From assembly GCA_041169755.1 (NCBI GenBank), contig JBEEIS010000135.1, positions 8,439-72,438 of the forward strand: DNA of 64,000 nt, written 5' to 3'. Source of the DNA: Pseudomonadota bacterium (GTDB lineage: Bacteria; Pseudomonadota; Gammaproteobacteria; Burkholderiales; Burkholderiaceae_C). Positions 8,977 through 33,271 of the stretch are shown piece by piece. Position 1 is the stretch's first letter; the number at the start of each line of letters is the position of its first letter. Made by a program: the position numbers and the translations under genes. The notes under the pieces were generated by a model. That model worked only from the letters and a program-made list of their open reading frames with translations. It had not been told where the DNA came from and did no database searches.

Positions 8977-9020
8977 TAAGCGCTTTCCGGTCCTTCGCTT
9001 TCCTTCGCCTGCGCGGCCCG

Positions 9021-9048
9021 GGAACCATCGACCGCACGTCGCCACCAA
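9021..9048 (+). promoter_or_regulatory. hrp-box ECF promoter
   Basis: GGAACC-N15-CCACCAA matches the HrpL consensus GGAACC-N15/16-CCACNNA, upstream of the ORF 9155/ECF sigma pair. Confidence 0.7.
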
Positions 9049-9154
9049 TCCGGCATCGCAGCTTCCAAGGCATTGCTTCGGCTTACCCCTGCCGCGCACA
9101 GCGGCCGATTGGTCCTTCTGTTACCCACGATGGAACCAGGCGGCCCGCCAGCAA

Positions 9155-9709
9155 ATGCTCCACGCCATGAGCCCTCTCCGTCCGGTCCTCCCCGCACAAC
9201 CCGTTCGTCACGCCGCTCCGCCTGCCCAGCCCTTCTCCCAGTCCCCCGGAACCTCCGAAGGCTCCACCGCACAGGGCTTGGCCGGCCCGGCGCAGGCCCT
9301 GCGCGGCACCGCAGGCATGGTCATCCAGGTACTGCAGCAGGCCTTCGGGAACACGATGGGTGAGGCCATTGCCCGAGAGCTCGGCCTGGACCCCGCATCC
9401 AGCCCCCCCATGCAGGCCTGGGAGGTCGACCGGGCCCTCGGAATCGGGCAGACCGCGCGTTCCGCCCTGCAGGGCGTTGACTTCGGCAGCCGTCTGGTCC
9501 ACTCCGCGCGTGCCGACGGACCCGGTTTCCGAAGGGTGTCCGAGTCCGTCGGACTGGACCCGAGGCACATCGACGACAGCACACGACGCGAAATCGACGC
9601 CCGAATGGATGCCAAATTCAACCAGGCCACAGCGGCAGGCCAGGCTCCTGTCCCGCTGACACAGGTCCGCGAATGGTTGCAAAAAGAGCTAATTCGCTTG
9701 ACTAAGTAA
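9155..9709 (+). CDS. Hypothetical protein; candidate T3SS-secreted anti-sigma factor (BtrA/BspR position) or effector; start may be 9167
   Basis: Directly upstream of the ECF sigma; Ser/Pro/Gln/Ala-rich N-terminus typical of type III secretion signals; preceded by an hrp box. Assignment by synteny only. Confidence 0.5.
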   Translation: MLHAMSPLRPVLPAQPVRHAAPPAQPFSQSPGTSEGSTAQGLAGPAQALRGTAGMVIQVLQQAFGNTMGEAIARELGLDPASSPPMQAWEVDRALGIGQTARSALQGVDFGSRLVHSARADGPGFRRVSESVGLDPRHIDDSTRREIDARMDAKFNQATAAGQAPVPLTQVREWLQKELIRLTK

Positions 9710-9722
9710 CTCCATTAAGGCA

Positions 9723-9743
9723 ACTTACAGGCTCTTTGTAAGT
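9723..9743. promoter_or_regulatory. Palindrome ACTTACA-N7-TGTAAGT upstream of the sigma gene
   Basis: Perfect 7-bp inverted repeat in the AT-rich 47-bp intergenic gap. Confidence 0.4.
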
Positions 9744-9756
9744 CCTCGGAGTTATT

Positions 9757-10362
9757 TTGCTGCCCCATCTTGAACCAGCGGATTCGCATCCTGCAGCGGA
9801 TCCGGGCACGACCCGTCCCGGCGGCCGACAGCTCAGCGACTCCGACGAGGCTCTGTTCAAGCAACTCGTCCACTCCCACCACCAGCGCCTGTACCGTTTC
9901 GTGGTGAAGCACATCGGCTGGAGTTCGGACGCCGAAGACATCACCCAACAGGCATTCGTCGAGGCCGCGCAAAGTTTCGCCACCTTCAAGGGCCAGTCCG
10001 AGCTCTCCACCTGGCTTTACGGCATCGCCATGAACCTGGTGCGCAACTACCTGTCCCGATCGCCGCATCGGCGTTATGCCTTCGAAGGAGAAGACGCACT
10101 CGCCGAAACCAGCTGCGCGCGTCCCACCCCTTTCGAACAACTCGCCCAATCTGAAACCGTCCGAGCGCTCGAGCAGGCCCTCGCGGAGCTAGCGCCTGAA
10201 ATGCGAGACGTCCTGCTACTGGTCGGCATGGACGAAATCAGCTACGAAGACGCGGCCGTCATGCTCTCCATCCCGATCGGAACCGTCCGCAGCCGGGTCT
10301 CACGCGCGCGCAGTGCACTGCGCAAGCGCTTCAACGCGCAAAACATCGACCTGGGCTTCTGA
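9757..10362 (+). CDS. ECF sigma factor, HrpL/BtrS-like
   Basis: Region 2 DAEDITQQAFVEA...STWLYGIAMNLVRN; region 4 SYEDAAVMLSIPIGTVRSRVSRAR; TTG start with GGAG SD; embedded in the T3SS locus. Confidence 0.9.
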   Translation: MLPHLEPADSHPAADPGTTRPGGRQLSDSDEALFKQLVHSHHQRLYRFVVKHIGWSSDAEDITQQAFVEAAQSFATFKGQSELSTWLYGIAMNLVRNYLSRSPHRRYAFEGEDALAETSCARPTPFEQLAQSETVRALEQALAELAPEMRDVLLLVGMDEISYEDAAVMLSIPIGTVRSRVSRARSALRKRFNAQNIDLGF

Positions 10363-10375
10363 GGTACACCCAGGC

Positions 10376-30814: not shown

Positions 30815-30858
30815 GCACTTCTTTCCTAATGCTGAAGGCTGTAGTGTAATTACTTCGT

Positions 30859-32148
30859 ATGAATCGCGACAGTATGCTGGAGCTGCGTGTCTTGAGCGGT
30901 ACCCATTCGGGGGCCCGGGCGCTGCTGGCTGCATCGCCTCAAGTCATCGGGAGCGGTGAGAACTGTGCCCTGATCCTGTCCGACGAAGGCGTCCTGGCCC
31001 AGCACGCCAGCCTCGAGCATCAAGCGGACGGCAGCACCGTGTTGCGCTGGCTCAACAGTGAAATGTCGCCCTTGATCGTGCGGCCGGGCCAGGGGGCGCA
31101 AATGGGCCCGGTTCGGGTGGCGATTGAGCAGATCGACACGCCGTGGCGAGAAGATGTTCCTATCCTGGTGCCGCCCCCGGCGCAGCCCTCGCCTCAGGTG
31201 TCCGAGCGCCGAACCGGGCTCAGCCCCAACCAGGTGCTGCTGCGTACTGGGGCGATGCTGGCGGTCCTGGCCCTGCTGGGCTTGGTCTTCTGGGCCGGCC
31301 TGACCATCCTCCAGGAGGCGCCCGACGCCCCGCAAGACATCGCGAGTTCGGCCGGCCCAGCGGCAAGCTCGGACCACGCGCTGGCCCTCGCTATCGCTCG
31401 GCTAGGACTTGCCGGCCGTGTACGCATCGACCGCACCGATCCGCAGTCGCCTGCAGTCAGCGTGGGGTTCCTGCCTGAGGAGGACATGCTGGCCTTGGCA
31501 CAAGAGTTGTCCCGGTTGTCGCCCCGCCCCCGGCTGGTCCGGGCGGATGAGTCGGAGTTGGTGAACGCAGTGACACAAGCGGTCCAGCAGCTGGCGGGGC
31601 CGGGTTTACCGGCCACTGCGCGCTACCTCGGAAACGGACGATTCCGCCTGGAGGGGCGCGTGACCGACGAAGTCCATCGCGCCCGTGTGATCGCCCAGCT
31701 GGAGCGGGAGTTTCCCTTTGCCGCAGGTTTCGAGTCGAACCTCACAACGCAGGCAGATGGCGCAGCCGCCATGCTCGAGGCGTTACGGCGACAGGGCCTG
31801 GGGCGAATCCACGGCGAGTGGACCGAGGGCATGCTGGTCCTGGAGGTCACGCTGGCCCCCGGCGACCAGGTCCGCTGGGAACAAGCGCTGCTGGCGGTAG
31901 CAACGCGCCACGATCTGCCCTTCAGGGCGCAGGTGCGATTGCAACCCGGTACGCAGCGGCCGACAGCCGCCGAGCTTCCGTTCACCATCCGAAGTGTTGT
32001 CAACAGCCCCCTGCCGCACGTGACCCTTTCTGACGGTCGCAAGCTGATGGCGGGCGGACGGCTGGACGGGTGGCAGCTCCAGGAGATCGGAGCAAGTCAC
32101 TTGGTACTCGACGGCCCTCAGGGCCAACGAATCACGATGGAGAGATGA
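30859..32148 (+). CDS. sctD: T3SS inner membrane ring protein (YscD/BscD)
   Basis: FHA-like N-terminus LRVLSGTHSGA...IGSGENCALILSD, single TM helix, C-terminal PLPHVTLSDGRKLMAGG. Confidence 0.9.
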   Translation: MNRDSMLELRVLSGTHSGARALLAASPQVIGSGENCALILSDEGVLAQHASLEHQADGSTVLRWLNSEMSPLIVRPGQGAQMGPVRVAIEQIDTPWREDVPILVPPPAQPSPQVSERRTGLSPNQVLLRTGAMLAVLALLGLVFWAGLTILQEAPDAPQDIASSAGPAASSDHALALAIARLGLAGRVRIDRTDPQSPAVSVGFLPEEDMLALAQELSRLSPRPRLVRADESELVNAVTQAVQQLAGPGLPATARYLGNGRFRLEGRVTDEVHRARVIAQLEREFPFAAGFESNLTTQADGAAAMLEALRRQGLGRIHGEWTEGMLVLEVTLAPGDQVRWEQALLAVATRHDLPFRAQVRLQPGTQRPTAAELPFTIRSVVNSPLPHVTLSDGRKLMAGGRLDGWQLQEIGASHLVLDGPQGQRITMER

Positions 32149-32366
32149 AGATGACACCAGCATTGACTGAACTCGAAGAACGCCTGGCGGGGCCCGACGG
32201 CGAAGCGGTCCGGATGACTTCGATCGCGGCCATCGCCGCCTTGCAAGCCCGTTGCCGAGCAGAGCCAGGTGACACGCGGCTCGATCCCATCGAGCTGAGT
32301 CGGATCAGGATCCTGCGGACGGCCTGCGAAGCCGCATTCAGGACATTGAAAGCTCAACCGCGGTAA
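32145..32366 (+). CDS. YscE-like needle co-chaperone
   Basis: MTPALTELEERLAG...; about 73 aa, between sctD and the needle gene. Confidence 0.7.
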   Translation: MKMTPALTELEERLAGPDGEAVRMTSIAAIAALQARCRAEPGDTRLDPIELSRIRILRTACEAAFRTLKAQPR

Positions 32367-32411
32367 ACAGTCGCTGCGTCTTGCTCAACCACCCATGGAA
32401 AGGAAACTGCC

Positions 32412-32654
32412 GTGCCCTCCACTAGCTTCAGCCCTCTGTACTCGCTTGAAAAACTCACCCTCGCCGTCAATGCCAGAAAAGGGCCATTGGATACTCAGAT
32501 CCAAGCCATGGGAACCAACACCGAGCCCATGACACCTGACCAGGCAATGCAGTTCAATTACAACGTGTCCAACTACAACCTGATGGCGCAACTGGCCGCC
32601 GACGTGCAGAAGAACATCTGGGACACGCTCAGGAGCATCATGAGCAAGACCTGA
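32412..32654 (+). CDS. sctF: T3SS needle subunit (YscF/BscF)
   Basis: 80 aa, PMTPDQAMQFNYNVSNYNLMAQLAADVQKNIWDTLRSIMSK helix-turn-helix; after sctD-yscE. Confidence 0.85.
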   Translation: MPSTSFSPLYSLEKLTLAVNARKGPLDTQIQAMGTNTEPMTPDQAMQFNYNVSNYNLMAQLAADVQKNIWDTLRSIMSKT

Positions 32655-32764
32655 CAGGCGCTCCTGGCAGGGCGCCTGCGCCACCGCCGCGCGGGGACCG
32701 CGCGGCGGACCTTGTTTATTGATGAGCAGGTTACCATCCGACCCCTGTGTGCACAGGCGTCGCG

Positions 32765-33259
32765 ATGCCCCCCTCACCTGCCTCAACCCGTCCGTCCTTT
32801 CAGGCCGTACAACCCAGCCGGATTTCTGAGTTCGAGGGCTTGGTCCGTGCGCTGACCGCCTGGTGCAATGAGGCGCAGGTACCACCGCAGACCGTAAGCC
32901 GACTGGTCCTGGTACTCGACGAGTTGTTTACGAACATCGTGGTCCACGGCTACCGCGAAGACCCCCATGGCGAGATCGTGGTGCAAGCCCAGGTGCGTGA
33001 CGGGGCGGTGGACGTTACGCTGACCGACCACGCGCCCGCCTTCAATCCCCTGCTCGTGCCGGAGACGGACACCACCCTCTCCCTGGAGGCGCGTCCTCTC
33101 GGTGGACTCGGCTTGCTTTTCGTGCGCAACACGTCGGATGAGTTGCGCTACCAGCTGCTCACGGACGCGCCCCAGGCAAAAAACTGGCTGCAGTTCACGC
33201 TGAAATTCGGTGCAGGCGGCAACCAACTCCGGGACCACGCGCTCGCCAGACCGCGATAG
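32765..33259 (+). CDS. RsbW/BtrW-like anti-sigma factor Ser kinase (HATPase_c)
   Basis: N-box LDELFTNIVVHG, D..PAFNP, G2 box GGLGLLFV. Confidence 0.92.
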   Translation: MPPSPASTRPSFQAVQPSRISEFEGLVRALTAWCNEAQVPPQTVSRLVLVLDELFTNIVVHGYREDPHGEIVVQAQVRDGAVDVTLTDHAPAFNPLLVPETDTTLSLEARPLGGLGLLFVRNTSDELRYQLLTDAPQAKNWLQFTLKFGAGGNQLRDHALARPR

Positions 33260-33271
33260 CGGCAAGGCGCG

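Follow-up and report, generated by a model that had tools for sequence, protein, structure and literature searches.

A predicted, apparently intact Ysc-family injectisome of the Bordetella Bsc subgroup in a tRNA-Leu(CAA) island of a freshwater Comamonadaceae-like bacterium

In a 64,000-nt stretch of contig JBEEIS010000135.1 (the window), from the draft genome of a freshwater bacterium, we identified a complete and uninterrupted cluster of genes for a non-flagellar secretion system of type III (T3SS) at 8977-33265, directly 3′ of a tRNA-Leu(CAA) gene (8892-8976, plus strand) that was the sole tRNA called by ARAGORN in the window. Genes were called from Pfam and NCBIfam family matches. All nine non-flagellar T3SS core genes (sctC, J, N, Q, R, S, T, U and V), the secretin included, were matched within this one block. 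Between 9155 and 33259, each sizeable frame with a coding-type G+C content at third codon positions (GC3) fits one functional set, and neither a frameshift nor an internal stop breaks any of the ∼35 open frames. An initial annotation, made from the sequence without database searches, had described a complete block of core components starting right after tRNA-Leu(CAA), and the family matches, the open frames and the tRNA call bear this out.

The tRNA gene marks the integration site of an island. A complete genome from the same genus, G008, has no SctV orthologue. There, ∼400 bp separate the counterparts of the genes at 7947-8858 and 33272-34213, the same tRNA-Leu(CAA) sits in the gap, and synteny extends on either side. 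The block is therefore a 24.3-kb insertion, and this empty site shows that the borders given initially, 8977-33265, were exact. Island features seen here are the present/absent polymorphism at a tRNA and a lower GC3 (0.72-0.81 in the block versus 0.81-0.90 in the flanks).

The minus-strand arm begins with the gene for the secretin SctC (10376-12076; Secretin and Secretin_N, with MxiD and InvG as top PDB matches). It is adjoined by a CesT-family class I chaperone gene in the BscW/YscB position (12073-12525; PF05932, E 2.8e-7) and by the genes for the autoprotease/switch SctU (12522-13574; PF01312, E 1.5e-98), SctT (13571-14392; PF01311, E 1e-53), SctS (14398-14667; TIGR01403, 111.7 bits, above the cut-off), SctR (14675-15319; PF00813, E 2.6e-68) and the sorting-platform/C-ring protein SctQ (15316-16443; FliMN_C, E 3.9e-19). 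The sctT open reading frame (ORF) is open to 14674, and its family match starts at residue 111. The 319-aa product of the frame between sctO and sctQ (16440-17399), which has no family match, is a candidate for the needle-length ruler SctP and shares 34% identity over 105 aa with the product of the same-position ORF in G009, a metagenome-assembled genome (MAG) that is the closest relative in the genus. This frame contains, at 17039-17078, a short tandem GCACAGGC-type repeat that is Ala/Cys/Leu/Pro-rich on the minus (coding) strand; needle-length rulers often carry repeats. The stalk protein SctO follows (17377-18105; PF07321 YscO, E 1.6e-19), with a true start that is probably near 17900, as the ORF overlaps sctN. 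The arm is completed by the ATPase SctN (17891-19336; ATP-synt_ab and T3SS_ATPase_C), the stator SctL (19236-19877; PF06635, E 1.9e-14), SctK (19847-20536; PF06578 YscK, 29.1 bits, above the cut-off), the inner-membrane ring lipoprotein SctJ (20540-21304; PF01514, E 8.1e-27) and the inner rod protein SctI (21301-21819; PF17001, E 2.1e-7, 31.7 bits against a cut-off of 32.4), which probably starts downstream of its ORF start.

Next to this arm, on the same strand, lie the translocon and tip-position genes. A small TPR chaperone in the BcrH2 position (21705-22112) resembles CdsG/YscG, with TPR family matches and a below-cut-off match to NF052304 CdsG (E 2.1e-9). Beyond it are a 273-aa candidate minor translocator (22163-22984), assigned from its YopD/BopD position with no family or relative detected, the major translocator of the SseC/YopB family (23036-24187; PF04888, E 1.6e-11) and an LcrH/SycD-type class II translocator chaperone (24184-24693; TIGR02552, 102.7 bits against a cut-off of 104.8, and TPR families). 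Neither SctF nor the major translocator yielded a useful result in PDB sequence searches, and the latter had no PDB match. The tip position is occupied by a gene for a 262-aa protein (24722-25510), assigned from its position, homologue searches and an AlphaFold2 (AF2) model. This protein belongs to an orphan family of ∼6 members, as a word-index search of 5.8 billion sequences returned one relative and HMMER, run exhaustively over 1.84 billion representatives, returned five; Pfam and NCBIfam scans of the block gave no LcrV or LcrG family match. The first gene of the translocon operon is a 109-aa ORF (25568-25897) without a family match, whose position makes its product a possible tip chaperone.

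Bsp22 of Bordetella and EspA of enteropathogenic Escherichia coli (EPEC) are described as having long N- and C-terminal helices with a small mixed α/β unit and a loop between them (PMC12607632). In the AF2 model of the tip-position protein, built from 7 sequences, a small β unit is likewise set between long helices at the N and C termini, which is the published topology. No sequence similarity was detected, the comparison with Bsp22 covering fold topology. Model confidence is moderate (predicted local distance difference test score, pLDDT, of 69), and the only Foldseek matches were weak and flagellin-like (E 6e-3, with all E-values above 1e-3). A single-sequence AF2 model was rejected (pLDDT 40). 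Judged from the predicted fold, the protein is probably filament-forming like Bsp22/EspA.

The plus-strand arm starts with the YopN/BopN-like gatekeeper gene sctW (26001-26861; TIGR02568, E 2.6e-13), whose product has the structure 7yyg, ‘Putative outer protein N’, as its top PDB match (78 bits, compared with 24 bits for YopN). It is separated from tyeA (26877-27167; PF09059, E 1.5e-21) by a single TGA at 26859-26861 (TGA-C), with tyeA starting 15 nt later in the same frame, such that read-through of this codon would yield a BopN-like fusion. There follow genes for a SycN-like chaperone (27171-27587; TIGR02503, E 1.9e-14, below the cut-off, and PF21665), SctX (YscX, 27553-27960; PF09474, E 7.9e-24), SctY (YscY, 27970-28317; NF052415, 72 bits, above the cut-off of 70) and the export gate SctV (28319-30421; FHIPEP, E 2.5e-234, and TIGR01399, 949 bits, above the cut-off). 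Further along lie genes for the inner-membrane ring protein SctD (30859-32148; TIGR02500, 111 bits, above the cut-off, and Yop-YscD_cpl), a candidate YscE-like (SctE) needle co-chaperone (32070-32366), which was assigned from position and size with no family and likely starts at an internal Met to give ∼72 aa, and the 80-aa needle subunit SctF (32412-32654; PF09392, E 5e-4, below the cut-off, with a needle-like turn and C-terminal helix).

The remaining elements are regulatory or promoter-like. At the left end of the island, orf184 (9155-9709, plus strand) encodes a 184-aa orphan in the BtrA/BspR position that matches no Pfam family and has a 38% identical homologue by the sigma gene in G009; by analogy of position (PMC7498569), it is a candidate secreted anti-sigma factor. 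The gene for a sigma factor of the extracytoplasmic function (ECF) type lies in the BtrS position, convergent with sctC (9757-10362, plus strand; Sigma70_r2, Sigma70_r4_2 and TIGR02937, 92.5 bits), and is 77% identical in G009. A gene for a BtrV-like STAS anti-sigma-antagonist lies antisense between sctV and sctD (30479-30934, minus strand; TIGR00377, 79.8 bits, above the cut-off), its product being 56% identical to the counterpart at the same place in G009, and a BtrW-like RsbW/SpoIIAB-like serine kinase gene is the final gene of the island (32747-33259, plus strand; TIGR01925, E 1.2e-7, below the cut-off), 49% identical in the G009 island. Two promoter-like elements were read from the sequence: an ECF/HrpL-type box, GGAACC-N15-CCAC, 5′ of orf184 and the sigma gene (9021-9048, plus strand), and back-to-back GGAACC boxes between the divergent operons (25936-25950), each with TTAC 15 nt after it. 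Both are candidate promoters; the loose motif of the box at 9021-9048 is not enriched genome-wide. The only promising match of this motif elsewhere in the genome, on contig C127, concerns a glycosyltransferase within an operon and was rejected as a regulon member or effector.

The initial annotation had called the island ‘btr-like’. This fits only in part: STAS and RsbW-like genes are present, but inside the structural locus, the window encodes no PP2C phosphatase, and the gatekeeper is made of two ORFs where BopN is one protein. The placement of the BtrW- and BtrV-like genes within the structural locus is common to the window and G009; the portion of the Achromobacter locus that was compared does not show it. 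Outside the window, contig C96 (22859-24925, minus strand) encodes a 688-aa membrane-anchored PP2C of the SpoIIE type, the only strong one in the genome. T3SS-positive G009 alone has an orthologue of full length; among six T3SS-negative members of the genus, four have no match and two have domain-level matches only. In three other carriers of related systems (G326, G587 and G073), similar PP2Cs of ∼700 aa are encoded at a distance of 9-31 kb from sctV, and such a protein is also encoded inside the G009 island. The C96 PP2C is a candidate BtrU partner of the island STAS/kinase pair, a link that is suggestive only, because three carriers have no match.

To which family does this cluster belong? 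SctV scored 875 bits against Yersinia LcrD/YscV (PDB 7alw, 59% identity), compared with 542 bits against SsaV and ∼400 bits against FlhA. SctN was closest to PDB T3SS ATPases at 512 bits, ahead of EscN (446 bits), SsaN and FliI. YscX and YscY are reported to be exclusive to the Ysc family (PMC7498569). Because SctV and SctN are closest to Ysc members and both YscX and YscY are present, the sequence comparisons assign the cluster to the Ysc family, in agreement with what was first proposed.

A phylogeny of SctV, a test that the initial annotation had suggested, was built with IQ-TREE from 40 rows, in which Achromobacter represented the Alcaligenaceae systems as a proxy for Bordetella (PMC5405338). 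With a support of 91/86, the window grouped with G009 (row L014) and four further genomes from its family, and this group was sister to a clade with Achromobacter sp. ASV32. Both groups fell inside a 16-row Burkholderiales clade (99/97), with Yersinia YscV outside it. A larger clade (100/99) held the window and YscV and excluded the Hrp2, Chlamydial and Desulfovibrionaceae rows; it also took in Pseudomonas/Erwinia/Ewingella-type rows, for which long-branch attraction may be the explanation. The nearest named SctV was an Achromobacter sp. protein, at 72% identity. On this phylogeny, the cluster is placed as a member of the Burkholderiales subgroup whose studied representative is Bordetella Bsc.

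Other members of the family carry Hrp2-like and Variovorax-type T3SS, and on that ground a plant-type (Hrp2) or flagellar export system might have been misread as an injectisome. SctV is, however, distant from these systems (41-45% identity to the Hrp2-like rows, comprising Xanthomonas, Burkholderia alba and eight same-family rows, and to the Variovorax-type T3SS) and sits in a different, well-supported clade. In addition, a secretin, a needle, translocators and YscX/Y are present, and the genome encodes a separate, distinct flagellar FlhA on contig C151. These results refute such a misreading, to which we assign a negligible probability, and uphold the earlier statement that the system is not of the Hrp2 type.

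The gene order supports placement beside the Bordetella system. According to the bsc locus table (PMC7498569), sctN follows sctL, sctU, a chaperone gene and sctC lie next to the ECF sigma gene btrS, and sctD-E-F follow sctV. When the window coordinates were set against this table, the order sctI-J-K-L-N-O-P-Q-R-S-T-U-chaperone-sctC beside an ECF sigma gene was found to be the same, with the sigma gene here on the opposite strand so that sctC converges on it, as first described. Also shared with Bordetella are the divergent sctW-chaperone-sctX-sctY-sctV-sctD-E-F arm, the position of the tip, chaperone and translocator genes between the two arms, the STAS and serine-kinase regulators, an SctW nearest to a BopN-like structure (7yyg) and an SctV within the Burkholderiales clade that contains Achromobacter sp. 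In contrast to Bordetella, where BopN is fused (PMC7498569), SctW and TyeA are split in the window by one in-frame TGA. The YopB-like translocator gene precedes that of the second translocator (BopD then BopB in Bordetella), a small ORF precedes the tip gene, and the BtrW/BtrV-like genes flank sctD-E-F, whereas those of Bordetella lie beyond btrS. The window also lacks the PP2C gene (btrU) and alr, btrO, btrN and btrM, and no sequence relatives of its tip protein were detected beyond the ∼6-member family. Many components are only 26-60% identical to those of Achromobacter (SctW 26%, SctD 28%, SctK 30%, SctJ 56% and SctN 60%), compared with 72% for SctV.

Other traits are those of the Yersinia Ysc and Pseudomonas Psc systems. 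As well as the 59% identity of SctV to YscV, the window shares with them family matches to YscX, YscY, YscO and YscK, the YopN/TyeA split with a SycN-like chaperone, and the order of an LcrH-type chaperone, a YopB-like translocator and a second translocator. It differs in that sctN follows sctL, sctC and sctD-E-F are relocated, a tip of the LcrV/PcrV-LcrG type is missing, and the cluster forms a chromosomal tRNA island. Its regulator is an ECF sigma factor, whereas that of Yersinia and Pseudomonas is of the AraC type (LcrF/ExsA). With a split gatekeeper and a Yersinia-like translocator order on one side, and the Bordetella gene order and ECF sigma factor on the other, the cluster represents an evolutionary intermediate between classical Ysc and Bsc systems, and helps to trace the origin of the Bordetella machine, and of its regulation, from ancestors in the environment.

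The host was placed with ValS, which is 85-89% identical to that of G009, 80-81% to those of G008 and G016 (another species of the genus), 79% to Variovorax paradoxus, 69% to Burkholderia alba and 66% to Achromobacter sp. In the GTDB coding, a genome identical to the V. paradoxus locus falls in the family of the window. Because of these ValS identities and the family code common with V. paradoxus, the host is classified by sequence as Comamonadaceae-like in the broad sense, and not as Bordetella or Achromobacter, as the flanking genes had initially suggested. The host genome is a 3.18-Mb draft of 196 contigs, 92% complete with 4% estimated contamination, and is small beside the 3.4-5.9 Mb of other genomes of the genus.

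Such a fragmented and slightly contaminated draft, together with a nearest named SctV from Achromobacter sp., raises the question of whether an Alcaligenaceae (Bordetella/Achromobacter) T3SS was joined wrongly to a Comamonadaceae contig during assembly or binning. We consider this very improbable. A single contig of 77.5 kb contains the block, and synteny with genomes of the same genus holds for its two flanks. G009, an independent MAG, has its T3SS at the same right junction. In four metagenome studies, island depth equalled flank depth, and contigs crossed the right junction in three of the four. Finally, SctV is only 72% identical to the Achromobacter protein. The right junction is the only one common to both genomes: left of the T3SS in G009, where synteny with the left flank was sought, there is at least 31 kb of unrelated DNA without a tRNA. 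In the G009 island, additional genes fill ∼5 kb between that for the RsbW-like kinase and sctD (L109 7996-12360, G009:C23). Among them are one for a 686-aa PP2C and a 635-aa frame that lacks a homologue in the genome of the window and may encode an effector or regulator.

Presence or absence in relatives had also been proposed as a check. In addition to the empty site in G008, SctV orthologues were detected in 3 of 24 other species of the genus (67-79% identity), in 5 of 400 sampled genomes of the family, spread over five genera, one with the Variovorax genus code (at least 68%), and in 7 of 400 sampled genomes of the order, from five other families (at least 62%). Carriers include complete genomes, from the family and from the order, whose SctV is at 73-74% identity. 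Related clusters in public genomes thus span at least six genera of the family and five other Burkholderiales families. A full-text literature search found no description of a T3SS of the Ysc/Bsc type for Comamonadaceae or for MAGs from fresh water. The cluster type is rare yet already present in public genomes; the cluster is real and not unique, a moderately divergent member of the Ysc/Bsc injectisomes, and the initial reading was overstated as regards uniqueness. Near-identical sequence was found in freshwater metagenomes of at least nine studies.

Taken together, the 24.3-kb island at tRNA-Leu(CAA) in this freshwater Comamonadaceae-like chromosome very probably encodes a complete, apparently intact Ysc-family injectisome of the Bsc subgroup. 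By analogy with Bordetella and Yersinia, the island ECF sigma factor would drive the two divergent operons from GGAACC-type promoters, with the product of the upstream orphan orf184 perhaps serving as a secreted anti-sigma factor, and the STAS protein and RsbW-like kinase, probably together with the C96 PP2C, would gate secretion post-translationally. The base would be built from SctRSTUV, SctN/L/O/K/Q, SctD/J and SctC, and the needle from SctF under the control of SctP and SctX/Y. Late substrates would be held back by SctW-TyeA. The orphan, probably filament-forming tip and the two translocators, with an LcrH-type chaperone, would form a pore in a eukaryotic target membrane.

Several observations weigh against this reading. 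SctI and SctF fell below curated cut-offs, and SctP, SctE, the minor translocator and the 109-aa ORF take their names from position only. The whole-genome scan for GGAACC-N15-YYAC found 21 sites compared with ∼30 expected. No PP2C is encoded in the window, and the one on C96 is linked to the T3SS by co-occurrence only. An integrase and att-like flanking direct repeats were sought at the island borders and none were found, which bears on the mechanism and timing of insertion. The draft status of the genome (92% complete in 196 contigs) must also be counted here. Scans of the draft genome for the promoter motif and for CesT chaperones revealed no effector or effector-chaperone pair, which does not show that effectors are absent, because the draft is incomplete. 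Extra CesT-like matches on contigs C96, C35 and C109 were rejected, as their neighbours are housekeeping genes and none is next to an effector candidate.

Expression data are limited to sparse RNA contigs. In one freshwater metatranscriptome, contigs of 190-265 nt at a depth of 2-4 covered parts of orf184, the sigma gene and sctJ, as well as both translocon genes, the chaperone and tip genes and sctV. Their depth resembles that of organism-specific pieces of the flanks and could be explained by DNA carry-over, a further point on the negative side; the signal represents basal transcription at most. In metatranscriptome X23, the flank genes at 34000-48800 (transporter and housekeeping) reached a summed depth of up to 445 and the island 0-3, with the flank depth coming largely from conserved genes of other organisms.

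This sparse, low-depth RNA, the effectors missing from the genome scans, the patchy occurrence in the genus (3 of 24 species) and the lack of a mobility gene or att repeat, suggesting an old insertion, would all suit an ancestrally acquired island that looks intact but is silent or decaying and no longer used. Against such a relic, however, all of the ∼35 frames are open, the island is at full depth in the populations of several studies, and G009 retains the same gene set at 42-77% protein identity, i.e. after long divergence without loss. We therefore regard a relic as unlikely and favour an intact injectisome.

If intact, what is the system used for? The usual view of freshwater Comamonadaceae is that of free-living heterotrophs. 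If a lake population has a complete injectisome fixed in it, as the recovery from at least nine studies suggests, this points to an unrecognised interaction with eukaryotic cells. We propose, as a tentative possibility that we hold to be rather less than even, that the cluster represents a distinct Bsc-type branch, in which the filament tip comes from a separate orphan family and the partner-switch has been rewired, and that it injects effectors into planktonic eukaryotes (protists, algae or zooplankton). Were this true, the carriers would not be free-living heterotrophs but would live by contact with other cells, as predators, parasites or symbionts. A less probable alternative, which we rate as doubtful though not as low as a relic, is that the system works, but not against protists or animals, and instead targets fungi or algae or secretes to the medium or surfaces, e.g. 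as an adhesive filament. The orphan tip-position family with its predicted flagellin/EspA-like helical architecture would be compatible with such a use, the freshwater habitat offers algae, fungi and zooplankton as partners, and known effector families were not detected. On the other hand, the SseC/YopB translocator and the LcrH-type chaperone are the pore-forming part for eukaryotic membranes, and the data do not separate the possible eukaryotic targets.

The genus shows further variation at this tRNA and in its T3SS. In G016, the tRNA-Leu(CAA) site lies beside a different insert of ∼6 kb (L112 5896-12134, G016:C23) with frames of 634, 565 and 463 aa, and the site is therefore an insertion hotspot in the genus. 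At another locus (G016:C38, ∼98-128 kb; L106-L108), the same genome carries a second Bsc-like T3SS of the genus, with a rearranged gene order and an SctV 67% identical to that of the window. In the SctV tree, the G016 protein fell in a different subclade, sister to a genome with the Variovorax genus code and near Oxalobacteraceae rows. Therefore, Bsc-like systems were acquired independently at least twice in this genus.

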